This document shows positions 1-17,235 of a DNA stretch of 64,000 bases, piece after piece. Origin of the DNA: Candidatus Brocadiia bacterium. Lineage in GTDB: Bacteria; Planctomycetota; MHYJ01; JACQXL01; JACQZI01. Location of the stretch: NCBI GenBank assembly GCA_020051675.1, contig JAGVQN010000085.1:8170-72169 (forward strand), read 5' to 3'. Position 1 is the stretch's first letter. Each line of letters starts with the position of its first letter. Below the pieces are notes generated by a model, which had not been told where the DNA came from, ran no database searches, and saw only the letters and a list, made by a program, of their open reading frames with translations. The position numbers were made by a program, and so were the translations under genes.

Positions 1-112
1 GCTTCCTCCCCAGCCCGGCGACTGGCTGGCGACTTATCATGAAGGTGGGCAAACCTTTAAACAATATGTCAGTTCAAATCCGCTTTATCCCGATGAAACG
101 CGCAATAAAATA

Positions 113-814
113 GTGCTCCAGCCGATTGGGCAATTTACGGATAAGGAAAAAGAAATGCTCGGCAAGCTCAGGGAATATACGGAACTGTTTTTCCGGATGC
201 CGGTTATTCTGGCAGCGGAGGCTCCCTTGCCGCAAACCAAGATAGGCAAACGCACGCGCCGGCACGGCGGTAAAGACTTGATACAATACCAGACGGGCTT
301 CCTGATGGACGAGGTCGTATCGCCTAACCTGCCGGGGGATGCCTTTTGCTCTATGGGAATAACCATGACCGACCTTTATCCTGATGAGGACTGGAATTAT
401 GTTTTCGGGCAGGCGACCTTACGCAACAGAGTCGGTATTTATTCGCTGGTGCGTTATTTTCCTGAGTTCTGGGGAGACCCGGAAACCAAGGAAAGCGATA
501 CGCAGGCATTGCGCCGCGGATGCAGCACCCTGGCGCATGAGACCTGCCATATGCTGGGCATGGAACATTGTATCTTTTATGAATGCCTGGTTTGCGGGAG
601 CAATAGTTTGGAGGAATCAGACCGCCGACCACTCAGGCTTTGCCCGGTTTGCCTGAAAAAACTGCATTGGAATGTCAATCTTTTATCTCAAGCCGCCGCA
701 ATTAAACGCTACGAGGAACTGGAAAAATTCTATCGGGCAAATGGCTTAATGCCGGAGGCGAATTGGATTAAAAATAGGGTTTCTAGAATAAAAGCAATCA
801 GGAATAATCCATAA
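113..814 (+). CDS. Archaemetzincin-like zinc metallopeptidase. It may extend 5' beyond the window because the frame is open to nt 2.
   Basis: The motif HETCHMLGMEHC (HExxHxxGxxH) is followed by CxxC...CPVC cysteine pairs. The N-terminal LQPIG block is typical of the AmzA family. The start is GTG at 113. Confidence 0.75.
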   Translation: MLQPIGQFTDKEKEMLGKLREYTELFFRMPVILAAEAPLPQTKIGKRTRRHGGKDLIQYQTGFLMDEVVSPNLPGDAFCSMGITMTDLYPDEDWNYVFGQATLRNRVGIYSLVRYFPEFWGDPETKESDTQALRRGCSTLAHETCHMLGMEHCIFYECLVCGSNSLEESDRRPLRLCPVCLKKLHWNVNLLSQAAAIKRYEELEKFYRANGLMPEANWIKNRVSRIKAIRNNP

Positions 815-927
815 ATAAAACAAATCGAACTTGTTTGGGGACGACTCGCCAGATTACATTCAAATTGTCTTGATTTTCCCGCTGTTTTATAATATGATAA
901 TTTAATAAGGATGTTTGGAACGTAATC

Positions 928-2850
928 ATGAATAATAACCTTAACGTCTTGAATCAGATGAAGGCTAAATATCCTGATAAATTCGCATCGGAAGACGCCA
1001 TCTTCAAACACATCAATCCCGGCGACCGGATATTTATCGGGACTGCCTGCGGAGAGCCGCAATACCTCGTCAAGGCGCTCATCAATTACGTCGAGTCCAA
1101 CCCCAAGGCGTTCTTCGACGCGGAAGTGCTCCAGGTCTGGACGCTCGGCGTGGCTCCATACGCCGATGAGAAATTCAAGACCAATTTCCGCCACAACTCG
1201 TTTTTCATCGGGGAAAGCACCCGCTCCGCCGTGGGCAAAGGCAACGCGGATTATACCCCGGTATTTTTATCCGATGTCCCTAATCTCTTCCGCCGTCGCC
1301 TGCAGCCGATAGATATTTCGCTCATCCAGGTTTCCTCACCCGATGAGCACGGCTACGTCAGCTTAGGGGTGAGCGTGGATATTGTCAAGGCGGCGGTCGA
1401 GGCGAGCTCCTTGGTTATCGCCCAGATTAATTCGAATATGCCGCGCGTCCACGGAGAGACATTCATCAATATCAAAGACATTAATTTCTTTATTCCGCAT
1501 GACGAGCCTTTGCTGGAATATAATTCCGAAACGTCCAGGGAAATACAGTTAAAGATAGGCAATTATGTCTCGCGCATCATAGAGGATGGGGATACCATCC
1601 AGGTCGGTTACGGGAGCATCCCGAACGCGATATTATCCAGCCTCGCCAACAAGAAACACCTGGGCGTCCATACGGAATTGCTGAGCGAGGGACTGGTCGA
1701 GCTCATGAAATCCGGCGTCATAGATAATTCCAAAAAGAACCTGAACCACGGCAAGACCGTGGCGGCTTTTTGCATGGGCAAGAAAGAGACGTATGATTAT
1801 ATCAACGATAATCCGAGCATCGAATTCCGGGCGGTTGATTACACCAATAATCCTTTGGTCATATCAAGAATCAATAATATGGTCGCCATAAACAGCGCCC
1901 TGGAAATAGACCTGACCGGTGAATCCACGGCCGAGTCGCTGGGGAAAACTTTCTACAGCGGAATCGGCGGCCAGGCTGATTTTATGAGAGGCGCGATTCT
2001 TTCTCCCGGAGGAAAAACCATTTTGGCAATGGAATCAACCGCGGTGCACCACGAGGGTTCGCCGCAGACCGAGGGTGAAATAGTTTCCAGAATCGTCCCG
2101 TTTTTAAAGGAAGGCGCGGGCGTTACCCTGAACCGGGGCGATATCCATTACGTGGTGACCGAATACGGGATAGCATACTTACACGGCAAGAACATACGGG
2201 AACGCGCCATGGCGCTCATTGCCATCGCTCATCCGAAGTTTCGCCTCGAGCTTATCAAGGAAGCCAAAAAAGCCAACCTGATTTACCATGACCAGGCGTT
2301 CATCCCGGGGAAGAAAGGCGAATACCCGGAACACATGGAACTTTGCCGCACGACCAAAGAGGGTTTAACTTTATTCTTGAGGCCCGTTCGCATAAGCGAC
2401 GAGCCTTTGCTCAAGGATTTCTTTTATTCGCTTTCCGACCAGAGCATGTATCGCAGGTTTATTTCCACCCGGAAAGATATGAGCCATGAACGCTTGCAGG
2501 AATTTGTGGTCATTGATTATACCAGGGAGATAGTAATACTCGCTTCAATCCAGAAGGATGAGAAAGAGTTTATCGTCGGAGTGAGCCAATACGCCATAGA
2601 CGAAAACTCGCATACCGCCGAGGCGGCTTTTGTGATAAGGGACGATTACCAGAACAAGGGAATCGGGAAAGAACTGCTTTCCTACCTTACCTATCTTGCC
2701 AAGAAAAACGGGTTGCTTGGTTTTACCGCCGAGGTCCTGGTGGAAAACAAACTGATGCTCCATCTTTTTGAGAGCATGGGCTTTGACATAGAAAAAAGGC
2801 ATTCTTCAGGAGTTTGCGAGCTGAGGATGACCTTTAAAGATAAAGAATGA
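928..2850 (+). CDS. Fusion protein: acetyl-CoA hydrolase/transferase family domain (Cat1/4-hydroxybutyrate CoA-transferase-like) plus a C-terminal GNAT acetyltransferase domain.
   Basis: The N-terminal ~440 aa resemble CoA-transferase/acetyl-CoA hydrolase family proteins. The C-terminal ~190 aa carry a GNAT motif (RDDYQNKGIGKELL...). Its stop overlaps the next gene as ATGA. Confidence 0.7.
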   Translation: MNNNLNVLNQMKAKYPDKFASEDAIFKHINPGDRIFIGTACGEPQYLVKALINYVESNPKAFFDAEVLQVWTLGVAPYADEKFKTNFRHNSFFIGESTRSAVGKGNADYTPVFLSDVPNLFRRRLQPIDISLIQVSSPDEHGYVSLGVSVDIVKAAVEASSLVIAQINSNMPRVHGETFINIKDINFFIPHDEPLLEYNSETSREIQLKIGNYVSRIIEDGDTIQVGYGSIPNAILSSLANKKHLGVHTELLSEGLVELMKSGVIDNSKKNLNHGKTVAAFCMGKKETYDYINDNPSIEFRAVDYTNNPLVISRINNMVAINSALEIDLTGESTAESLGKTFYSGIGGQADFMRGAILSPGGKTILAMESTAVHHEGSPQTEGEIVSRIVPFLKEGAGVTLNRGDIHYVVTEYGIAYLHGKNIRERAMALIAIAHPKFRLELIKEAKKANLIYHDQAFIPGKKGEYPEHMELCRTTKEGLTLFLRPVRISDEPLLKDFFYSLSDQSMYRRFISTRKDMSHERLQEFVVIDYTREIVILASIQKDEKEFIVGVSQYAIDENSHTAEAAFVIRDDYQNKGIGKELLSYLTYLAKKNGLLGFTAEVLVENKLMLHLFESMGFDIEKRHSSGVCELRMTFKDKE

Positions 2851-4964
2851 TGAAAAGCACGGAAAGCAATATTAAAATACTTTTCGAGCCTAAATCCATC
2901 GCAATTATCGGGGCATCGCAGCATAAAGGGAAAATAGGCTATAAGATACTGGAAAATATTGTTGCCGGCGGATACAAAGGCAAAATCTATCCGATTAACC
3001 CGAAGGGCGGGGAGATACTAGGCATCAAGGCGTATAAGGCGATGGAAGATGTCCCGGGCGATGTAGACGTGGCGACGATAGTTGTGCCCGCGGAGTTTGT
3101 TTATCCGGCGCTTAAAGGATGCGCGGCCAAGAAGACAAAGTTCCTTTCTATCATTACTTCCGGTTTTTCGGAAATAGGCAATGTCGAGGAGGAAAAGAAA
3201 ATCGTTTCCTTTGCCCGAGAAAACGGTATGCGGATTTTGGGACCCAACATATTCGGGTTCTTTTCCGCGGGCGTTTCGCTTAACGCCACTTTCGGGCCGA
3301 AAGAAGTGAAGAAAGGCGGCGTGGCGATAATCACCCAGAGCGGTGCGCTGGGCGTGGCGATGATAGGGAAAACCGCCGTGGAAAACATCGGGCTTTCCGC
3401 GATAATCTCGGTCGGGAACAAGTCCGACCTTGACGAAACGGATTTGCTCAGGTACCTGATTAACCACGAAGAAACTAAAGTCATCATGATGTATATTGAA
3501 GGGATAAAAGATGGTGCACGCCTCGTCGGCATATTGAAAGAAGCGACTGCCAAAAAACCGGTTATCGTGGTGAAATCCGGCCGTTCCAAGCGGGGCGCCA
3601 TCGCGGCGGCATCGCATACCGGGTCTTTGGCCGGTTCGGATGAGATATTCGACGCCATCATGAAGCAATGCAATGTCCAGCGGGCGGAAAATATCAAGGA
3701 CGCGCTGGAATGGTGCAAGTTCCTTTCCAATTCACCCGTCCCCACTGCGGAAAACGCAATCATCATCACTAACGGCGGTGGCATCGGAGTCCTGGCGACG
3801 GACGCCTGCGAGAAATACGGGATAAAGCTTTATGACGATTATGAGGCGCTTAAGAAAACATTCGCGCCGGTGATGCCGTATTTCGGCTCGGCCAAGAACC
3901 CGATTGACCTGACCGGGCAGGCGGAATCTTCCCATTACAGCCTGGCATTTACGACCTCGCTTAAGAATAAGAATATTTCGTCTTTGATTTCGCTCTATTG
4001 CGAAACGGCAGTTTTTGATATCCAGAACTTCGAGCCGCTTATTGAGGAAACATACAAGAAATACAAGGCAGCCGGAAAGCCGATAGTCTTTTGCCTGGTG
4101 GGCGGTGAAAAGGTGGAGGAGTGCGTCAAGTCTTTGCGCCGCCGTGATGTGCCGGCTTTCAACGACCCTTATGAGGCCGTTTCCTGTTTGGGCGCGCTTT
4201 ATTCTTACGCGAATTATCATGGCGAAAGCTCTGAAACCATAGATAAGCCGAAACTAGATGTTAAATCCATAGAGGAGGTTATTAAAAAGGTCAGGGCGGA
4301 AAACCGCAGTTTCCTCCTTTCCAATGAAGGGCAGGCGGTTGTGAAAGCCGCCGGCATGCCTGTCCCGCAAAGCTATATCGCCCGCAATATCAAAGAAGCG
4401 GCTGATTACGCCCAAAAGATAGGTTATCCCTTGGTCATGAAAATAGTTTCCAAGGACATTCTCCATAAAAGCGATGTCGGCGGGGTGGCTCTGGATTTAC
4501 AGAATAAGAACGAGGTGATAGAAGCCTACGAAGCCATTATTAATAATTGCCGGACGCATAACCCGGCGGCCACAATTGACGGGGTGGAAGTCTCCGAAAT
4601 GGTTCCCCACGGGACGGAGCTTATAATCGGCGCTAGGCGGGATCCTTCCTTCGGGCCGATTGTCATGTTCGGGCTGGGCGGGATTTATGTCGAAGTGATG
4701 AAAGACGTCAGTTTCCGCGCCATTCCGGTCGGCCGGCGCGAGATACTTTCCATGATAAAACAAATTCGGTCTTATCCATTATTGCTCGGTGTCCGCGGCG
4801 AAGCGCAGAAGGATATCGAAAGCGTAATTGACAGCATCATAAAAGTGAGCGGGATAATTGAGTCTTGCCCCGCGATAACCGATATCGAAATAAATCCGCT
4901 GGTCGTATACGAAAAGGGCGTAAAAGCCGTGGATGCGCGGATTTTGATTTCCCATCTAAAATAA
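2847..4964 (+). CDS. ADP-forming acetyl-CoA synthetase (acetate--CoA ligase [ADP-forming]) with fused alpha and beta domains.
   Basis: An N-terminal CoA-binding domain (IAIIGAS...GKIGY) is followed by a succinyl-CoA-synthetase-like flavodoxin domain and a C-terminal ATP-grasp domain. The start overlaps the upstream stop by 4 nt. Confidence 0.8.
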   Translation: MMKSTESNIKILFEPKSIAIIGASQHKGKIGYKILENIVAGGYKGKIYPINPKGGEILGIKAYKAMEDVPGDVDVATIVVPAEFVYPALKGCAAKKTKFLSIITSGFSEIGNVEEEKKIVSFARENGMRILGPNIFGFFSAGVSLNATFGPKEVKKGGVAIITQSGALGVAMIGKTAVENIGLSAIISVGNKSDLDETDLLRYLINHEETKVIMMYIEGIKDGARLVGILKEATAKKPVIVVKSGRSKRGAIAAASHTGSLAGSDEIFDAIMKQCNVQRAENIKDALEWCKFLSNSPVPTAENAIIITNGGGIGVLATDACEKYGIKLYDDYEALKKTFAPVMPYFGSAKNPIDLTGQAESSHYSLAFTTSLKNKNISSLISLYCETAVFDIQNFEPLIEETYKKYKAAGKPIVFCLVGGEKVEECVKSLRRRDVPAFNDPYEAVSCLGALYSYANYHGESSETIDKPKLDVKSIEEVIKKVRAENRSFLLSNEGQAVVKAAGMPVPQSYIARNIKEAADYAQKIGYPLVMKIVSKDILHKSDVGGVALDLQNKNEVIEAYEAIINNCRTHNPAATIDGVEVSEMVPHGTELIIGARRDPSFGPIVMFGLGGIYVEVMKDVSFRAIPVGRREILSMIKQIRSYPLLLGVRGEAQKDIESVIDSIIKVSGIIESCPAITDIEINPLVVYEKGVKAVDARILISHLK

Positions 4965-4976
4965 AAGGAGGAGTGT

Positions 4977-6014
4977 ATGAATAAACTGGTTTTCGCATCA
5001 ATGAATAAGAATTCCGGAAAGACGAGTATCATCATCGGACTGGGCCGGGCATTGAAAATGAAGATAGGCTATATGAAACCTTTCGGCGAACGGCTGGTCT
5101 ACCATAAAAAGAGATTGTGGGATTACGATGCCGCCCTGATTGCGGGGCTGTTCGACATGAAGGAAAGCCCAGAGGAAATGACCCTCGGCTTTGAATATTC
5201 CAAGCTGCGCTATATGTATGACGAAAAACAGCTGGATAAAAAACTACATGAGATGGCCGAAAATATGGGCAAAGGGAAGGACGTCCTTTTTATCGAGGGC
5301 GGCAAGGATTTGAGATACGGTTCTGGGTTGTCTTTAGATGCGGTTTCCGTTTGTAGGCGGCTTAAAGGGGAGCTATTTATCGTATTGGACGGGGATGACG
5401 ATTCGATACTGGATGATGTCTTGTTTATCAGGAATAATATAAGCAAGGAGGGCGTAAAGCCGAAGGGCGTGATAATAAACAAGGTCAAAAACCCGGCAGA
5501 TTTCCGGGAGACGCATCTGGATATAATCAAACAGGCGGGTTTGAATGTGGCGGGAATAATCCCGTTTAAGCCGGAGCTGAATTACCTGACAGTCGGCTAT
5601 ATCGGTTATAAACTTTTTGCCAAGACACTTTCCGGGGAAAGCTCCGCCGCAGGCCGGAGCATCAAAAACATATTTATCGGGGCGACTTCGGCGGAAGCGG
5701 CGCTAAAAAGCCCGCTCTTTAAAAAGGAGGATAAGCTTATCATTACCAGCGGAGATCGGAGCGATATGATACTGGCATCCCTGGATAAAAACACCTCAGG
5801 GATACTGCTTACCAATAATATCTTGCCGCCTTCCAATATTATCGCTCGGGCTTCCGAACTTAATATCCCGCTGCTTTTGGTCAGCCAGGATACTTATCAG
5901 GCGGCAAGCCAGATAGACGATATGGAGTCGCTGCCGACCAAGGATGAAAGCGAAAAGATAAACTTAATGGAAAAGCTGGTTAAAGAAAACGTGGACCTTA
6001 AGAAGATAATCTAA
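4977..6014 (+). CDS. Stand-alone DRTGG-domain protein resembling the phosphotransacetylase N-terminal regulatory domain.
   Basis: A P-loop-like N-terminus (NKNSGKTSIIIGLG, FKP motif), GVIINKVKN, and DRSD...LTNN correspond to the E. coli Pta N-terminal domain. No catalytic Pta domain is present. Confidence 0.6.
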   Translation: MNKLVFASMNKNSGKTSIIIGLGRALKMKIGYMKPFGERLVYHKKRLWDYDAALIAGLFDMKESPEEMTLGFEYSKLRYMYDEKQLDKKLHEMAENMGKGKDVLFIEGGKDLRYGSGLSLDAVSVCRRLKGELFIVLDGDDDSILDDVLFIRNNISKEGVKPKGVIINKVKNPADFRETHLDIIKQAGLNVAGIIPFKPELNYLTVGYIGYKLFAKTLSGESSAAGRSIKNIFIGATSAEAALKSPLFKKEDKLIITSGDRSDMILASLDKNTSGILLTNNILPPSNIIARASELNIPLLLVSQDTYQAASQIDDMESLPTKDESEKINLMEKLVKENVDLKKII

Positions 6015-6017
6015 AGA

Positions 6018-6341
6018 TTATTCTTTAACGCTGATATTGGTCTGCGGGAATCCGCTTTCAACAAGCCGTTGTTTCAAATTCAGGTTGGGATGATAAAGGA
6101 TAAACCTTTCGTCAGACCGGGCGAAAACCCCGAAGATTTTCATGCAGGGTTGGCCGATATGCTCCGTGTCACGTAAATCCAGCACGATTTTTTCCCCGTT
6201 ATAGCGGTTAACGCAGTGGTTGATGACTGTTTTGATGATGCCCCTGGCCTTGCTTACCTCTTCTTCATGGCGTCCGTCCGCCGGATGATGGTCTATAAAA
6301 CGAGGGGCTTTCAGGTAAATATCATTTTCAGTAAAAGTCAT
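6018..6341 (-). CDS. Hypothetical protein.
   Basis: A 107-aa ORF with genome-typical composition and no recognisable motif. Confidence 0.35.
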   Translation of the reverse strand: MTFTENDIYLKAPRFIDHHPADGRHEEEVSKARGIIKTVINHCVNRYNGEKIVLDLRDTEHIGQPCMKIFGVFARSDERFILYHPNLNLKQRLVESGFPQTNISVKE

Positions 6342-6446
6342 AATTCAATCTCCTTTGCTGGGCAGTCAGATTGCTCTTAAATTAGTTTATCGGAAATCAG
6401 CGGAGGGATAAAGAGGTGCTTTTAGATATTTTCGGTAAATAGGATA

Positions 6447-6485
6447 TAAAAAAGCCCCCTCCCTGAAAGTATCCGGGGAGGGGGC
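6447..6485 (-). terminator. Rho-independent terminator downstream of the SPOR lipoprotein gene.
   Basis: The stem GCCCCCTCCC...GGGAGGGGGC is followed by a TTTTTT run on the minus strand. Confidence 0.6.
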
Positions 6486-6507
6486 AGGTTAAGTGATTCG
6501 TTAACGC

Positions 6508-7761
6508 CTATTTAAACTTTACCAAATCGCAATCCTTAAAGGCAGAGCGTTTTGATTGCAAACCGGGCATATCTTTTTCCGCCGCGTCTTTGGTGTCGTA
6601 GGGACCAGCATAAACGCTGACATTATCGACCCCGCCGATACGTTCATTGCGGGTGAAAACATTGGAAACTCCGTTCGCATTCAGCCAAGCCACCATGCGG
6701 CTTGCCAGGTGTTTGCCCATTTTATTGTTTTCGTAGTAAATCAGCCGGATTCCCCATTTACCGGGAGCAACTCCCGCTTCGGTGTCCGTTTTCGGGGTGA
6801 TATCCGGGGCCGGTGTTTCTTTTTCGGGTGTTACTTTGTCGGGCGGTGTTTTCTCTCCAGGTTTCTTGCCGGAGGGCTTTTGCTTCTCCAGTTCTTTCAC
6901 TTTTTCCGCCAGGCGCGGTTTGGTCTTCATTACGTTCAGGGTGATATCCTTTATATCTTTTGCCTGAACCCCTTCCGGGGGTGCGTAAACGAAAAGGCTG
7001 GGCGATACGTCCTTGTTCAACTTAACATCATTGAAAACCGCGGTAAATTCCGGCTTTTTGAGGTCTGAACCGGCTTCGTATTTCTTTATAAAATGGGTTT
7101 CTTTGTCAAAATAAAGCCTGGCCGAGGTGATGTTTAATCCTCTTGCCAGTGTCGGAGGGTTATCCTGTTTGTAGAGTTCTTCAAGCCCGGCTTCGCTTAA
7201 ATCGCCTTCGATTACCTCGCATTTTATTCCGTCGACCTTTTGCGCGGGAACCGATTTAAAACTATAAAGTTTGAGCATGGTCCTGACTGTTGCGGGCAAA
7301 TCATGCCCCACGAGCAATCCTGTCGGGTAGGGAGGGTAATAACCGTCAAACATATTATCCGGGGTGACAATGTCTTTCAAAGAGACTTTAAGGATGTTTT
7401 TCGGGGTGATAATGGCATCTCCTTGTTTATCGCTTAATTCAACCCACTGGTTTTCTCCGTCAAAGAGCATTTTATATTGTGCGCTGTAATTGGCTCCGCC
7501 TGAAACAGGCTGTGTCATTTCCGTATCGGTCAAGAGCTGGACAGGGCTCCGTCCGGCTATTTTACTGACAATTGACGCAGGGGAAGATTCCGCACCGGGC
7601 GAAAGGGAGCTCATGGTCATATTAATCGTCGCGCTGTAGCTTTCCAGGGAATCCAGCGCTTTATTGGCATCCCCTATCACTTCATTAGGCTGCCTCGGTT
7701 TTGAGCAACCGGCTCCCAATACCATAAGGGCTATAAGCCCCAGTATGACAAACCGTTTCAT
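6508..7761 (-). CDS. Lipoprotein with a proline/lysine-rich linker and a C-terminal SPOR (peptidoglycan-binding) domain.
   Basis: It has a signal peptide plus lipobox (LGAGCSK), a low-complexity KP/TP linker, and a C-terminal SPOR-like fold (GKWGIRLIYYEN...DTKDAAEK). Confidence 0.6.
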   Translation of the reverse strand: MKRFVILGLIALMVLGAGCSKPRQPNEVIGDANKALDSLESYSATINMTMSSLSPGAESSPASIVSKIAGRSPVQLLTDTEMTQPVSGGANYSAQYKMLFDGENQWVELSDKQGDAIITPKNILKVSLKDIVTPDNMFDGYYPPYPTGLLVGHDLPATVRTMLKLYSFKSVPAQKVDGIKCEVIEGDLSEAGLEELYKQDNPPTLARGLNITSARLYFDKETHFIKKYEAGSDLKKPEFTAVFNDVKLNKDVSPSLFVYAPPEGVQAKDIKDITLNVMKTKPRLAEKVKELEKQKPSGKKPGEKTPPDKVTPEKETPAPDITPKTDTEAGVAPGKWGIRLIYYENNKMGKHLASRMVAWLNANGVSNVFTRNERIGGVDNVSVYAGPYDTKDAAEKDMPGLQSKRSAFKDCDLVKFK

Positions 7762-7944
7762 ATATGCTCTCCTTTTCTAAAATAAATATAAAACTTCGGT
7801 CTACTATACTATTCATTTAGCCGAATGCAAGATAAAAATGATAATAAAGGAACGCAGCTTGTCCGCCCTGTTTTTACAGTAAAATGATTTAACTTGACCA
7901 AAGCGCGTGAAGCGGGTATAAAAGCTTCTGGAAACAGCTTAAAT

Positions 7945-12630: not shown

Positions 12631-14205
12631 TCATTGCAATGGCGGTTTTTCGATGCCCAGCTGTTTCATCTTGGCGGAAAGGTTGGGCCTGAGCATCTTC
12701 AGATACTCGGCGGCTTTGGTGATGTTCCAGCCGTTTTCCTCAAGCGCCCGGGTGATAATGTGCTTTTCTATTTCCTTCCTGCCTTCCTTCAGTATCTTGG
12801 ATTGGGTCAGGCTTTCCCCGGCCGCGCCGGCGATGGATATCTTTGTCGTGGTGTTGAGTATATGGGGCGAGATATCCTGCGCCTTCAACGTCTCATCGCA
12901 CAGGACGGTCATCCGCTTAATCTCGTTTTCCAGCTCGCGCACGTTGCCGGGCCAGTTATAGGAAATAAATATCTTCAGCGCCTCTTTATCGAGCTCTTTC
13001 CTTGCGGAATTAGTCTCCTTGGCAATCTTATCCAGGAAGTGGCTTGCCAATAGCGGGATATCATCTTTTCGCTCCTTTAAAGGAGGAAGGGTAATCGGTA
13101 TTACATTCAGCCGGTAGAAAAGGTCTTCGCGGAATTTCTTCTGCTGGACGAGTTCGCGGATATCCTTGTTGCTCGCGGTTACCAGGCGCACATCCACCTT
13201 GATAATATCTTTTCCGCCGATTGGCCTCAGTTCACCTTCCTGTATGACGCGCAGTAGTTTCTTCTGCATCTCCGGGCTCATATCGGCGATTTCATCCAGG
13301 AAAAGGGTTCCCTTATCAGCCAGCGCGAAAAGCCCTTTCCGGTCCTGGTTGGCGCCTGTAAAAGCGCCTTTGGCATATCCGAAAAGCTCGGCTTCCAGGA
13401 GCGATTCCGGAATCGCCGTGCAATTCTGCGAAAGGAATTTTTCCCCGGCGCGCGGCCCGTTAAAGTGTATCGCCCGGGCGATGAGCTCCTTCCCGGTGCC
13501 GCTTTCGCCCTGTATCAAAACCGCGAAAGAGGTGTCCTTGGCCTTTTCCAGCAGGCGGTAGATTTCCTGCATCTTCGGGCTCTGGCCGATGATATTGCCG
13601 TATTGATATTTTACCTGCAGTTCTTTTTCTATCGTTTCCAGCTTGTCACTCAGTTGTTTATTCAAGAGATGTATTTCAGCGCGCTGGGCGGCGTTTCTGA
13701 TGGCAATCGTCGCGTAAGAGGCAAACGCCTCGACGAGATTAACATCGTAATCCGAGAAGGTTTCGGATTTATTGGGCGCTTCTATTTTATTCAACACTTC
13801 AATCACGCCTATCAAATCGCCTTCCGGGGTGATAAGCGGGGTGGAAAGTATATTACGCGTCTTGTAGCCGGTCATCTTATCTATCAACTGCATAAAGTGC
13901 GGGTCGTTGTATGTATCCGGGCAGATTACGCTTTTCTTTTCCTGGGCGGTGTGCCCGACGATCCCCTTGCCCATCGGGACGGTTATCTTGATATCGGATT
14001 TCTGGGCAATCCGGCTTTCCATCTGGTTGGTTTCCGGGTTATACATAAATAAGGAACTGCGTTCGGCCTTCAGCACCTCGGTCGCCTTATCCAGGATAAA
14101 ATTAAGCAGTTTGTCCATATTGGGTTCTGCGACCATTGCCTTGGAAATATCAATGAGTGAAATCAGGTCTTCGGAGCGGAGCGTTGATTTAATGTCAGGA
14201 GGCAT
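12631..14205 (-). CDS. Sigma54-dependent transcriptional activator (bacterial enhancer-binding protein) with an N-terminal GAF domain.
   Basis: A GAF domain is followed by an AAA+ sigma54-interaction domain (GESGTGKE Walker A, GAFTGA motif) and a C-terminal Fis-type HTH. Confidence 0.9.
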   Translation of the reverse strand: MPPDIKSTLRSEDLISLIDISKAMVAEPNMDKLLNFILDKATEVLKAERSSLFMYNPETNQMESRIAQKSDIKITVPMGKGIVGHTAQEKKSVICPDTYNDPHFMQLIDKMTGYKTRNILSTPLITPEGDLIGVIEVLNKIEAPNKSETFSDYDVNLVEAFASYATIAIRNAAQRAEIHLLNKQLSDKLETIEKELQVKYQYGNIIGQSPKMQEIYRLLEKAKDTSFAVLIQGESGTGKELIARAIHFNGPRAGEKFLSQNCTAIPESLLEAELFGYAKGAFTGANQDRKGLFALADKGTLFLDEIADMSPEMQKKLLRVIQEGELRPIGGKDIIKVDVRLVTASNKDIRELVQQKKFREDLFYRLNVIPITLPPLKERKDDIPLLASHFLDKIAKETNSARKELDKEALKIFISYNWPGNVRELENEIKRMTVLCDETLKAQDISPHILNTTTKISIAGAAGESLTQSKILKEGRKEIEKHIITRALEENGWNITKAAEYLKMLRPNLSAKMKQLGIEKPPLQ

Positions 14206-14222
14206 ATATAATGTTGCTTAAA

Positions 14223-14246
14223 AGGTTACCCCGCTTTGCGGGGTTA
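14223..14246 (-). terminator. Palindromic element GGTTACCCCGCTTTGCGGGGTTAC. It acts as a terminator-like hairpin after the M16 gene and is a member of the GTTACC repeat family.
   Basis: It is the reverse complement of the element at 17297-17319, differing by 1 mismatch. A second related hairpin lies at 14263-14293. Confidence 0.55.
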
Positions 14247-14323
14247 CAAGAGGTTATAAGAAGTTACCGCCCTTGCCTGTTGGCGGGGTAACCTTCTGTA
14301 ACATCCTGCAACTCGTTTTCCCT

Positions 14324-15613
14324 CTACTTTGCCAAGAAGTACACCGTGTCCAGCTTTATCTTATCCGCCATGCGGATAACGTCTTTCTTGGTAACCGATC
14401 GTAACTTTTCCCTTAGTGTTTCCAGAGAATCCGTCCGCTGGTTGATAAGTTGTTCCAGCGTATACCCTATATAAGAAAACGGCATGTCGCGGATGGTTTT
14501 ATAACGGTCGTCAATGGACTTAATGGTTGCAGACATCTCATCGTCAGAGACGTTGCCTTTTTTGATCTCGTTAACCTGTTCCTTGATGATATTGACCGCC
14601 GGCTCGAATTTATCCGCCCCGATGCCCGCCTGGACGAACATCAAACCCTTATTGCGTTCCAGAGACGAAGAGGCGTAATAAGCCAGTCCCGCTTTCTCGC
14701 GGACATTCAGGAATAGTTTGGAATGGGGGAACGCACCGAGCACCCCGTTAAATATCATCATCGGGAAAACATCCTCGTCGCTCCAGGTGGTGTAGGTGCG
14801 GAAGCCCATGACCAGTTTGGCCTGCTCGGAATCTTCCGCCTTTTCCCGGACGATATTTTCCTTGTCAACCTTTTTATTGACGAATGTCGCCGGCACTTCG
14901 GCGATTGTTTTGTCGCGCTTTACGGAAAATATCCGCCGAACGGATTTTTCTATCTTATCCGGGCTGAACGTTCCGTGGATAAAAATATCTATCGGATATT
15001 TATAAATAACCGCTTGGAGCCGCTTCAATAGCGCCTCGCCGTTCAGACAATCGATATCCTCGATTCTTCCTTCATCATAGATGCGGTAAGGCTCGGAGTG
15101 GCACATTTCCTCCACGCAGCGTTGGTGGGCGTAGGCGATTTTGTTATCCTTCAGCCCGCTTATTTCATTCCGGAGGTTGCGCTTTTCCTGCGCCACGTAA
15201 TCCGCCGGAAGCCCTTTATTCTTTACCAGTGGCTCGGCAAGAAGCCTTTTTAAGAATGCCAACCCGTTTTCCAAGACATGCGCCTTTTCCGGCAGGAACC
15301 GGTCAGCCACGCCTTCAAAGTGGAATTCCAAAAGGTGGCGTTCTCCGATTTTACTGACATCGCTCCCGAAGCTTGCCCCGTAAAGCGAATCGAGATACGC
15401 CACGATTTTTCGCATGTTCGGATATTTCCTGCACCCGCGCAGAAGAACGCTGGTCAAGAGGGAATTAGCGGTAACGTTTTCATCCAGCGGGGTGTGGATA
15501 AAGAGCTTTAGGTAAACAGTTTTAAACTGGTCTGTCGGGCACAGGTACAGGTTAATCCCCGAACCAAGACTTACTTTGCTGAATGAGCGTATTTCTTTTT
15601 CCATGGTTTTCAT
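14324..15613 (-). CDS. M16 (pitrilysin/insulinase) family peptidase-like protein, possibly non-catalytic.
   Basis: The length and fold-typical N-terminus match the M16 family, but no canonical HxxEH was seen (HLLEF is present instead). The likely start is MKTMEKE. The ORF track extends to 15661. Confidence 0.55.
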   Translation of the reverse strand: MKTMEKEIRSFSKVSLGSGINLYLCPTDQFKTVYLKLFIHTPLDENVTANSLLTSVLLRGCRKYPNMRKIVAYLDSLYGASFGSDVSKIGERHLLEFHFEGVADRFLPEKAHVLENGLAFLKRLLAEPLVKNKGLPADYVAQEKRNLRNEISGLKDNKIAYAHQRCVEEMCHSEPYRIYDEGRIEDIDCLNGEALLKRLQAVIYKYPIDIFIHGTFSPDKIEKSVRRIFSVKRDKTIAEVPATFVNKKVDKENIVREKAEDSEQAKLVMGFRTYTTWSDEDVFPMMIFNGVLGAFPHSKLFLNVREKAGLAYYASSSLERNKGLMFVQAGIGADKFEPAVNIIKEQVNEIKKGNVSDDEMSATIKSIDDRYKTIRDMPFSYIGYTLEQLINQRTDSLETLREKLRSVTKKDVIRMADKIKLDTVYFLAK

Positions 15614-15690
15614 GCCATAACTATAACACCTGGCAATGGAAATGCAAGAAAATCCCGACATAGGGTGTCGGGATAACTTTTCGCAGTGGT

Positions 15691-15706
15691 TAGGGCTATA
15701 GCCCTA
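15691..15706. promoter_or_regulatory. Perfect 16-bp palindrome TAGGGCTATAGCCCTA in the divergent intergenic region.
   Basis: Direct reading. It is a candidate operator. Confidence 0.4.
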
Positions 15707-15865
15707 TACCATCAAAATAGTTATGATGTTTGGGAAAAGGCAACAGAACGTTAGGGTATCAGAATACCAGGTTGCCGGAGCATTAGATTTTTAATCACAT
15801 CTGATAATCTGATGAACTGATACACTGATATTCTTTGTCCGTCAGGACTATGTTGATTGTTTTTA

Positions 15866-15894
15866 TTGACAACCTGATATATGTAAATTAAAAT
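15866..15894 (+). promoter_or_regulatory. Sigma70-type promoter for the dehydratase operon.
   Basis: TTGACA, then a 17-nt spacer, then TAAAAT. Confidence 0.4.
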
Positions 15895-15930
15895 CATTGT
15901 CCTACATGTATTTTAGATTAGGAGCAAAAT

Positions 15931-17235
15931 ATGAACAAATATCCGACCGAGCAATTGAAATCATGGGATAAGGCAAAAGAAATCAGGACAAATTATTACA
16001 AGAATTACGCTAAAGCGCATGATAAAGGCGGCCTCAGGTGGGCAGGCGGCGCCTGGTCCTTCGGCGCGATTCCGGCGGGATTGGGAGATGATGTCTACCC
16101 GATAACCGGAGAGCCTTACGGCGCATCAATCGCCTGGAACAAGGATTTCGCCGTCCGTTGCCAGGAAGCCACGGAAAAATACGGGTTCGCCCGTGACCTT
16201 TGCTCCTACATGCGCAGTTATTGGGGCTCGATATTGTTGGATGAATACGCCTTCGGCGGAAAATTCCCCAAGCCCGATTTTATGTGGCAGGACCATATCT
16301 GCTGCAGCCATGCCAAATGGTACCAGGTGGCCAGCGACCTGGAAGGCGGCATCCCGACATTCTGCGTTGATGTTGCGGTCGGTCCGGAAAATGCCGTAAC
16401 GGAAAACAGGCTTAATTACGTGGTTAACCAGATGCATGAAGGCATCGCCTTCCTGGAAAAAACCACCAAGCGCAAATATAACGATGAAAAACTAATCGAT
16501 GCGGTTTATAACGAATGCCGGGCGACCTCCGCCTGGGCGGAAGTATGCGTCTTGAATAAAACCGTGCCGGCTCCGCTGGATGAAAAGACCATGTATTCAT
16601 TATATGTATTAGGCACATTGATGAAACACCACAAAATAGTGGCGGATTATTATGAAGAACTGCGGGACGAGGTAAAAGACCGCGTGAAACGGGGCATCGC
16701 CGCCGTTCCGAACGAGCGTTGCCGGGTGATGAGCGATACCCAGCCGCCTTGGGCGTTCCTCAAGGTATTCAGGTATCTGGAAAAGTTCGGCTGCGTCTCC
16801 ATCGGCTCGCTTTATACCTTCGGGCTTATCGGCCTCTGGGAAGAAAAACCGGACGGCACTTGGGGCGCCAAGACCACTCCCCAGCAAAAAGGCATCAAGA
16901 TAAAGACGCGTGACCAGGCTTTAAGGATTCTGGCTGAATGGAATCTTGCCAAGCCGGAATGGCAGCATTTCTATTCGCCGGCATTAAAGAGCGATATGAT
17001 GATACGCATCGCCAAGGAATGGAAGCTTAACGGCGTAATGTTACATTATAATAGGGGCTGTGAAGGCTTATCACTTGGTATTGCTGAAAATAGATTAGCC
17101 CTGCAAAAAGCCGGATTCCCGGTAATGACCTTTGAAGGCAACATGGGCGATGAAAGGGAATTCGACGAAGCGCGCACCATGACCAGAATCGATACATTCA
17201 TGGAAACATTGAACCTAAAGAAACTGGAGGACTGA
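15931..17235 (+). CDS. 2-hydroxyacyl-CoA dehydratase / benzoyl-CoA reductase (HgdB/BcrC/BadD) family subunit.
   Basis: The size and sequence pattern are family-typical, and the gene is paired with an activase gene downstream. Confidence 0.65.

Follow-up and report, generated by a model that had tools for sequence, protein, structure and literature searches.

A conserved operon joining a CoA-transferase–acetyltransferase fusion to an ADP-forming acyl-CoA synthetase and a Pta N-domain-type protein: a possible control module for acyl-CoA and acetate metabolism in bacteria and archaea

The locus

In the genome of a Candidatus Brocadiia bacterium (Planctomycetota; assembly GCA_020051675.1) we analysed a stretch of 64,000 nucleotides (contig JAGVQN010000085.1, positions 8,170 to 72,169 of the forward strand), which we call the window and to which the coordinates below refer unless a locus number is given. 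At its positions 928 to 6014 lie three genes, here named g1, g2 and g3. They encode a fusion of a CoA-transferase with a GNAT acetyltransferase, an ADP-forming acyl-CoA synthetase (ACD), and a stand-alone protein resembling the N-terminal domain of phosphotransacetylase (Pta; we call such proteins PtaN-like). In the reading that we put forward, and to which we give about an even chance, the operon might be a node of acyl-CoA, acetate and ATP metabolism with built-in lysine-acetyltransferase control and a sensing partner, and it might be horizontally mobile. The main features are as follows.

928..2850, plus strand: g1, 640-residue fusion of a CoA-transferase and a Pat-type GNAT
928..2277, plus strand: CoA-transferase domain of g1, residues 1-450, with Glu250 and the oxyanion motif G345-x-G347-G348-Q
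2290..2847, plus strand: GNAT module of g1, residues 455-640, with Glu565 as the putative catalytic base and with Q575-x-x-G578-x-G580 as motif A
2847..4964, plus strand: g2, 705-residue alpha-beta-fused NDP(ADP)-forming acyl-CoA synthetase (ACD)
4977..6014, plus strand: g3, 345-residue stand-alone P-loop (AAA_26) plus DRTGG protein of the Pta N-domain type

The whole set is compact, about 5 kb in total. A translationally coupled trio had been proposed in the original prediction, which was made from the letters of the sequence, and the open reading frames are indeed as proposed: g1 and g2 share the 4-nt overlap ATGA (g2 start codon ATG at 2847, g1 stop codon TGA at 2848-2850), and 12 nt separate the stop of g2 from the start of g3.

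A CoA-transferase fused to a Pat-type acetyltransferase

The domains of the g1 fusion score far above their Pfam gathering scores, in line with what had been predicted. The first part matches AcetylCoA_hydro (PF02550, 171 bits) and AcetylCoA_hyd_C (PF13336, 205 bits), both with cut-offs of 24, and the second part matches Acetyltransf_1 (43 bits). Against solved 4-hydroxybutyrate and short-chain CoA-transferases the first part reaches 338-391 bits, and on these matches we assign it to family I of the CoA-transferases, in the AcetylCoA_hydro/4-hydroxybutyrate subfamily. The nearest structure is PDB 9vag (391 bits), which is probably the Thermus enzyme TtCoAT (bioRxiv 10.1101/2025.10.31.685773), since its N-terminus shows Lys5-Lys6 as in that preprint. 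In the alignment with AbfT of C. aminobutyricum (3gk7, 373 bits) the catalytic Glu238 falls on Glu250 of g1, which sits in the motif GVHTE; the oxyanion/CoA-binding motif reads GIGGQADF (S344-G-I-G-G-Q349). A more specific name could not be given at the equivalog level, where TIGR03948, with its cut-off at 675, yields 302 bits.

Glu250 is invariant in 43 g1 orthologues. In the clade that holds g1 it is present in 80 of the 82 members, and G345, G347 and G348 are present in all 82, with about equal conservation in the CoA-transferase domain (71%) and the GNAT domain (68%). Since Glu250 and the GxGG motif are intact and the two domains are equally conserved, we treat g1 in its clade as bifunctional, with a CoA-transferase predicted to work, and regard a purely sensory role of this domain as the main rival explanation. 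Lys18 of g1 is likewise invariant; it aligns beside the acetylated K5/K6 of TtCoAT, at a position where other CoA-transferases carry Arg or Lys, and may be taken as a weak lead to an acetylation site. When compared with TtCoAT and the consensus of the family, g1 also has an insertion of about 9-11 residues (AVHHEGSPQTEGE) at residues ~372-386 (window 2041-2085).

All strong matches of the GNAT domain are of the Pat type. It aligns with the Pat structures 9it0/9isq (their residues 710-881) at 73 bits, with the GNAT of S. lividans PatA (4nxy) at 70 bits and with mycobacterial Pat (Mt/Ms) at 42-44 bits; Sulfolobus Pat is also among its top PDB matches. The top NCBIfam match of the region is NF058543, 'acetyltransferase Pat', at 75 bits, below the curated cut-off of 460. 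Secondary matches to RimI, ArsN1 and AAC(6') models are weak. The domain shares the N-terminal extension of Pat, 'YPxHxE...LRP...DEP...YRRF', and its Glu565 aligns with the catalytic base of Pat (E809 by position in 9it0; E234/E235 in mycobacterial Pat). Loss of the acetyl-CoA-binding motifs would have spoken against the original prediction; Glu565 and motif A (Q575-N-K-G578-I-G580) are both kept in g1, and in its clade Glu565 is found in 79 of 82 members, the Gln in 80, G578 in 79 and G580 in 80. We infer that g1 carries, at its C-terminus, a protein lysine acetyltransferase of the Pat type.

Bacterial acetyltransferase architectures have been sorted into types I-V (PMC8556138). g1 lies outside types I and II, its partner domain being a CoA-transferase and not a dead synthetase-like domain, and by its predicted domains it fits none of types III-V as described there either. 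While the family of each domain was already known, the CoA-transferase–GNAT arrangement as a lysine acetyltransferase architecture, if the predicted activity holds, would be new to this scheme.

The synthetase g2 and the Pta N-domain-type protein g3

Pfam models for CoA_binding, Succ_CoA_lig, Ligase_CoA_2 and ATP-grasp_5 all match g2 above their cut-offs. It aligns over its full length with the ADP-forming 4-hydroxybutyrate-CoA ligase of N. maritimus (8wzu, 515 bits), and with the ACD of Ca. Korarchaeum (4xyl) at 412 bits for the alpha and 205 bits for the beta part. These results agree with the earlier assignment of g2 as an alpha/beta-fused NDP-forming acyl-CoA synthetase, which by its domain matches is complete, with all five subdomains. 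The phosphohistidines His257 (alpha, SHTGS loop) and His540 (beta, HKSD) are invariant in 43/43 family members, and since both are kept we predict that g2 is a live enzyme and not a dead sensor. g2 also matches the synthetase-like N-terminal domain of Pat at 273 bits. The idea that the parts of Pat have been re-shuffled across the operon hence stands as regards homology, both for the GNAT and for g2, but g2 differs from a displaced Pat domain in that it has kept its catalytic histidines.

In g3, Pfam finds AAA_26 and DRTGG (70 and 78 bits). On the Pta model PRK05632, which has 708 positions, its alignment spans positions 3-367, at 110 bits against a cut-off of 418, and the protein ends at residue 345 without a PTA_PTB catalytic domain; for both reasons g3 is not a Pta. 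In an AlphaFold2 (AF2) model of good quality (pLDDT, the predicted local distance difference test, 88; pTM, the predicted template-modelling score, 0.86) a P-loop domain like that of dethiobiotin synthetase precedes a DRTGG domain. With Foldseek the model matches dethiobiotin synthetase (DTBS, 1dts; E 1e-8), the DRTGG protein AF1212 (2ioj; TM score 0.81) and the N-domain of E. coli Pta (7t85; TM score 0.72). Pta is reported to bind allosteric effectors, among them NADH, ATP, pyruvate and phosphoenolpyruvate. The earlier description of g3 as an orphan Pta N-domain is supported by the Pfam domains and the PRK05632 alignment and needs to be amended in one respect: the P-loop G14-K15-T16 is intact, and invariant in 44/44 orthologues, whereas E. 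coli Pta has G-L-T instead. The g3 family further has an invariant motif of its own, K44-K-R-L-W-D-Y-D51, and also T257-G-G-D-R-S-D263. At the loci L006, L025, L042 and L050 (Spirochaetota) and L104, g3 is present twice in tandem behind g2, with ~55% and ~51% identity to the g3 of the window.

Conservation and distribution of the operon

A scan anchored on g1, with one genome per species, yielded more than 550 relatives; the counts below refer to the best 80, which come from Bacteria and Archaea and are 68-79% identical to g1 over the full length. Both g2 and g3 lie near g1 at 38 of these 80 loci, and at 30 the order g1-g2-g3 is strictly collinear. In the collinear operons the g1/g2 junction is most often the 4-nt overlap seen here (19 operons), and it lies within 5 nt in 28. 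The collinear operon is found in at least 14 phylum-level lineages, Asgard archaea included. Its bacterial carriers comprise Planctomycetota, Spirochaetota/Leptospirales, Bipolaricaulota, Aerophobetes, WOR-3, Gemmatimonadota, Zixibacteria, Dehalococcoidales, Thermotogae and Syntrophaceae/deltaproteobacteria, its archaeal carriers Theionarchaea, Thermoplasmata and Woesearchaeota; separate look-ups added Promethearchaeota (Asgard) and Poribacteria. Pairwise divergences of the three genes correlate (rho 0.29-0.48), which fits a possible transfer of the operon as a block.

A second, metagenomic scan was anchored on g3. It found g2 directly upstream in 67 of 74 evaluable loci and g1 in about 90% of the loci with enough sequence. 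Among the variants, five loci (L118, L120, L121, L135, L162) have g1 followed directly by g3, with no g2; four have g2-g3 without g1; and L093 has the order g2-g3-g1. The g1-g3 loci without g2, together with the order in L093, suggest that g3 partners with g1 and not with the ACD alone, and this clade of g3 is tied to g1 at least as closely as to g2. Chance adjacency of the three genes was considered and rejected on their conservation in the two independent anchor scans. The original prediction had named co-occurrence in other genomes as the point on which it could fail, and the three genes do co-occur as an operon across many phyla. It had also called the module unusual, which is apt in so far as the module is uncharacterised and less so in that it is widespread and common in uncultured anaerobes.

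Apart from g2 and g3, no gene recurs around g1 in the 80 genomes. In Nitrospirota a divergent pair of an ACD and a PtaN-like gene lies on the opposite strand next to g1. At six loci of this phylum (L014, L016, L021, L058, L073, L075) the gene immediately downstream of g1 codes for a conserved membrane-like protein of ~160 residues that matches no family. In Poribacteria (L083) the operon stands between two blocks of energy-metabolism genes (1-7898 and 13300-17223), with membrane-bound hydrogenase/complex-I-like subunits, a HycI protease and a 1307-residue molybdopterin/Fe-S/flavin oxidoreductase; these hydrogenase and formate-dehydrogenase-like genes suggest a fermentative, formate- or hydrogen-linked energy metabolism.

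The wider family of CoA-transferase–GNAT fusions

Full-length fusions of the g1 type occur in more than 8000 database proteins of 70-100% identity, which are named only 'GNAT family N-acetyltransferase' or 'acyl-CoA hydrolase/GNAT'. That the fusion stems from a frameshift or from an error of assembly was considered and rejected, given its recurrence at full length in these proteins and in the 80 species genomes. An exhaustive profile search added at least 70 further 50%-identity clusters of full-length CoA-transferase–GNAT fusions; the clade of 64-79% identity is thus only the tip of this family.

Several genomes carry more than one copy of g1. Three paralogues stand in tandem in a deltaproteobacterial metagenome-assembled genome (L053, 8001-13746), and a second copy lies a few kb downstream of the operon in Promethearchaeota (L082, 16468-17923) and in Poribacteria (L083, 17318-17887). 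Further domain combinations were noted. Two proteins of 960-967 residues, P0248 and P0250, place an N-terminal region of ~340 residues with 4Fe-4S motifs before the CoA-transferase–GNAT unit, and in P0319 (568 residues) a response-regulator receiver domain is fused to a CoA-transferase, with the GNAT absent.

Links to protein acetylation

Reversible acetylation of a lysine in acetyl-CoA synthetase (Acs) by Pat is the textbook example of metabolic control by acylation in bacteria. Genes for AMP-forming acyl-CoA synthetases lie within 8 kb of g1 at 10 of the 80 loci, none of which has the collinear g2-g3 operon. By our rough estimate, assuming one or two such genes per genome and a span of 16 kb, about 1% would be expected by chance. 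Seven of the ten synthetases are full-length (~656-680 residues). The two that were scanned (L033, L047) are true AcsA, with 1004 bits on TIGR02188 (cut-off 725); the one at L033 ends in SGKIMRR, the motif with the lysine that Pat acetylates. In Microseira wollei NIES-4236 (L047, 5781-13046) an ACD–GNAT protein, g1 and AcsA are encoded in a row on one strand. The ACD–GNAT protein, Pat-like and 915 residues long, still has the catalytic His (ASHTGSLAG), unlike type I Pat as described. Lyngbya sp. CCY1209, a culturable carrier like M. wollei, also has g1 beside Acs.

Genes for HDAC-type deacetylases directly adjoin g1 at L070 and L074, of which one belongs to Dehalococcoidales (order HDAC-g1-g2-g3) and one to Lyngbya. 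In two proteins the deacetylase is even part of the same chain: P0295 (1013 residues) and P0301 (955 residues) consist of CoA-transferase, GNAT and a C-terminal HDAC-type domain (268-287 bits), and neither keeps the Glu of the CoA-transferase (HTD and HSG instead). Such a fusion of writer and eraser would be hard to account for if the GNAT did not acetylate lysines of proteins. Judging from these gene neighbourhoods and motifs, Acs would be the best-supported class of target for the g1 GNAT.

Proposed function and alternative explanations

How might these parts work together? We propose that g2 would convert acyl-CoA, ADP and Pi reversibly into acid, CoA and ATP by way of phospho-His257 and His540, and that the CoA-transferase of g1 would exchange acyl-CoA and acetate for acid and acetyl-CoA, again reversibly, through a thioester on Glu250. 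Together the two could form a CoA-transferase/synthetase cycle similar to that of acetate:succinate CoA-transferase and succinyl-CoA synthetase (ASCT/SCS). By this cycle many short-chain acyl-CoAs would yield ATP through one synthetase; run in reverse, a single ATP-to-ADP activation could serve many acids. The GNAT of g1 might read the acetyl-CoA or acyl-CoA state and acylate enzymes of the node, with the CoA-transferase domain taking the place of the synthetase-like sensor domain of Pat. Where Acs is present, its acetylation would prevent an ATP-wasting futile cycle between ACD and Acs; other possible targets are g2, g3 and g1 itself. g3 would be a nucleotide- or metabolite-binding partner that binds g1, g2 or both and tunes them. 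The original prediction had offered a protein-acylation system and an energy-conservation node as two separate readings. They do not exclude each other, and we favour their combination. It had also seen g3 as a regulator detached from Pta; to this we add the correction that g3 is tied to g1 at least as closely as to g2.

Several observations weigh against this proposal. The Pat target motif PxxxxGK is absent from g1, g2 and g3, and no Acs, sirtuin or HDAC gene was found in the 64-kb window (tblastn). About one third of the g1 loci have neither g2/g3 nor Acs nearby. g2 remains below the NCBIfam equivalog cut-offs (TIGR02717 503 against 567, NF045493 610 against 1300), so that its substrate is not assigned, and the AF2 model of full-length g1 (pLDDT 67, pTM 0.56) is unusable for domain packing because the alignment is too shallow in diversity. 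In 70 diverse representatives of the fusion family, moreover, the catalytic Glu is kept in 42 and replaced in 28, by Asp in 12 cases and otherwise by Q, G, F, V, I, C, S, T, P or A. These substitutions are real, since the surrounding LG(I/V)H(T/S)x stays well aligned. The GxGG motif is often degraded as well, while the GNAT residues are kept in 63-67 of the 70. Hence the architecture as such does not need CoA-transferase catalysis, which weakens the part of our proposal that concerns a metabolic cycle. Across the fusions the CoA-transferase domain looks as if it had repeatedly been converted to a pseudo-enzyme, in parallel to the dead synthetase-like domain of Pat. Exchange of the catalytic Glu for Asp in another CoA-transferase reportedly makes that enzyme a hydrolase.

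The same losses are what one would expect if the CoA-transferase domain of g1 served mainly for acyl-CoA-binding regulation or oligomerisation. The operon would then be an acylation switch with the ACD as its substrate or allosteric partner, and no significant cycle would run. It fits this explanation that the same Pat-type GNAT module is normally attached to a sensor domain (PMC8556138). The clade of g1 itself, however, keeps Glu250 and the GxGG motif almost without exception (80 and 82 of 82) and conserves both domains equally, as expected of a working active site, and the closest stand-alone relative, TtCoAT, is an active enzyme; for the operon described here we therefore consider this explanation rather unlikely. 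Could the CoA-transferase, if live, instead feed the GNAT? It might turn free acids such as propionate, butyrate, lactate or 4-hydroxybutyrate, with acetyl-CoA as CoA donor, into acyl-CoAs for the fused GNAT; non-acetyl lysine acylations would report on these acids, and the ACD would refill the CoA-thioesters. A precedent exists in E. coli, where lactyl-CoA made by YdiF serves the GNAT YiaC in the lactylation of lysines (PMC9636275). With acetyl-CoA as the donor, TtCoAT takes many short-chain acids, substrate channelling would lead one to expect a live CoA-transferase fused to a GNAT, and several g1 paralogues per genome (L053, L082, L083) would fit differing acid specificities. Fusions with a dead CoA-transferase domain, on the other hand, cannot work in this way, and we regard such a supply of acyl donors as quite unlikely.

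Two further explanations appear very improbable to us. GNATs form a very broad superfamily, and the weak matches to RimI, ArsN1 and AAC(6') might point to N-acylation of an amine, an amino acid or an antibiotic, with the operon being biosynthetic or detoxifying. Against this stand the strong matches, which are all of the Pat type down to the Pat-specific N-terminal extension; fusion with and adjacency to HDACs and adjacency to Acs, which point to protein substrates; and the lack of conserved biosynthetic genes around the operon. The operon might also be a dedicated route that activates or interconverts 4-hydroxybutyrate and 4-hydroxybutyryl-CoA, given that g1 matches 4-hydroxybutyrate CoA-transferase structures (338-391 bits) and that the best match of g2 is the ADP-forming 4-hydroxybutyrate-CoA ligase (NF045493/8wzu). 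Yet both scores are far below the equivalog cut-offs (610 against 1300, for example), named relatives such as TtCoAT are broad in specificity, and no 4-hydroxybutyryl-CoA dehydratase or succinic semialdehyde reductase gene is linked to g1 in the 80 genomes; the alternative neighbour of g1 is an acetyl-CoA synthetase. We put little credence in either.

The node with built-in acetyltransferase control can be extended to the family as a whole, and this we do only tentatively, holding it to be somewhat doubtful. CoA-transferase–GNATs might represent a sixth and very widespread architectural class of prokaryotic lysine acyltransferases, in which a live or fossil CoA-transferase would gate or feed the GNAT; in the operon this unit would assemble with a live ACD, as a Pat rebuilt in trans, and with g3 as the sensor. 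If this were true, anaerobes among the bacteria and the archaea, the Asgard group included, would have a self-contained and horizontally transferable switch that links protein acylation with ATP synthesis at the substrate level.

Relation to known systems

The type I acetyltransferase Pat/PatZ (Pka), from Salmonella and E. coli, resembles g1 in that the same type of GNAT module follows a large CoA-thioester-binding domain. g2 is homologous to the N-domain of Pat, and in other genomes g1 is linked to the AMP-forming Acs. In Pat, the synthetase-like domain is without its catalytic histidine (PMC8556138), whereas in the module the fused domain is a family I CoA-transferase with an intact catalytic site, the synthetase is separate and intact, and g3 is an additional component.

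The closest solved relative, TtCoAT (TT_C1083), is an acetyl-CoA:short-chain-acid CoA-transferase and, among the proteins of T. thermophilus whose acetylation depends on a lysine acetyltransferase (KAT), the major one; its system comprises the KAT TT_C1711, the deacetylase TT_C0104 and the pseudo-enzyme regulator ADLP (bioRxiv 10.1101/2025.10.31.685773). Lysine acetylation and an adjacently encoded nucleotide-binding accessory protein take part in its regulation. In Thermus, however, the KAT comes from a gene elsewhere and works in trans, and an alanine-dehydrogenase-like NAD+ sensor serves as the accessory protein, while our module has the GNAT fused in cis, a P-loop/DRTGG protein as accessory and an ACD encoded alongside. 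YdiF and YiaC of E. coli differ likewise: they are separate, unlinked genes of other subfamilies and have neither an ACD nor a PtaN-like partner.

With the characterised ACDs (4xyl, 8wzu) g2 shares the same five subdomains, the alpha-beta order and both phosphohistidines. The literature searched describes no characterised ACD with translational coupling to a gene for a CoA-transferase–GNAT or with a PtaN-like partner. For g3, the N-domain of E. coli Pta (7t85) and DVU3031 of D. vulgaris have in common with it a two-domain fold of a dethiobiotin-synthetase-like P-loop domain and DRTGG. DVU3031 is a stand-alone AAA+DRTGG protein from the por-pta-ack lactate-oxidation region and is needed for growth on L-lactate (PMC4481167, PMC10102598); g3 also stands alone and is encoded beside enzymes that would lead from acetyl-CoA to acetate. 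Its partner, however, would be the ACD and/or the CoA-transferase–GNAT and not Pta/AckA, and g3 keeps the Walker-A lysine and has its own motif KKRLWDYD.

The ASCT/SCS cycle of anaerobic eukaryotes and trypanosomatids likewise pairs a CoA-transferase with an NDP-forming CoA synthetase to convert acyl-CoA to acid with a gain of ATP (for example PMC12817287). Other subfamilies are involved there, and the presumed shuttle of the module is acetate/acetyl-CoA in place of succinate/succinyl-CoA; that the module runs such a cycle at all is our inference. The module has, in addition, the fused acetyltransferase and the PtaN-like partner.

Full-text literature searches, whose coverage leaves out most subscription papers, returned no description of the fusion, of the operon or of a stand-alone PtaN-like protein with an ACD. 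The operon of a CoA-transferase–GNAT with an ACD predicted to be live and a PtaN-only protein hence appears to be new. Its recurrence across phyla and the lack of a description in the literature together make it probably an uncharacterised control module, which would act on how acyl-CoA is converted into acetate and ATP in anaerobes. The architecture is abundant, with thousands of sequences in at least 14 phyla at 64-79% identity across two domains of life. In addition, the module connects an acetyltransferase architecture with the ADP-forming synthetase, the other link between acetyl-CoA and acetate, by which fermenters and archaea gain ATP and for which no published regulator was found in the literature searched. 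Orphan proteins consisting only of a Pta N-domain, DVU3031 among them, would gain a defined pair of partners. Finally, the series from live to dead CoA-transferase domains may show an enzyme on its way to becoming a sensor, and the triple fusions of writer and eraser point in the same direction.

Surroundings of the operon in the window

Two short signals can be placed next to the three genes.

865..893, plus strand: candidate promoter TTGTCT-17 nt-TATAAT, 10/12 consensus matches, in the 113-nt gap upstream of g1
4966..4971, plus strand: Shine-Dalgarno sequence AGGAGG, 5 nt ahead of the g3 start codon, read from the sequence

In a promoter scan of the region such sites were no commoner than in shuffled sequence, and the site at 865-893 is a candidate only; a terminator scan of the region gave no signal beyond shuffle expectation. 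Right after g3 follows an open reading frame for 107 residues on the minus strand (6018-6341), and since it is convergent the operon unit ends at g3. Its product has no Pfam/NCBIfam match, and the gene is not conserved beside the operon in other genomes. By Pfam/NCBIfam the genes that flank the module appear to be unrelated to it: besides this short open reading frame they are an archaemetzincin-like gene, a SurA-like gene and thrS. Further along the window, positions 35448-58286 of the plus strand (22.8 kb) are taken up by a single open reading frame for 7612 residues. Pfam matches are confined to Beta_helix/NosD at about residue 1000 and DUF11/SdrD_B at about residue 6100, the rest being mostly family-less, and from these matches the product is probably a giant surface or adhesin-like protein.

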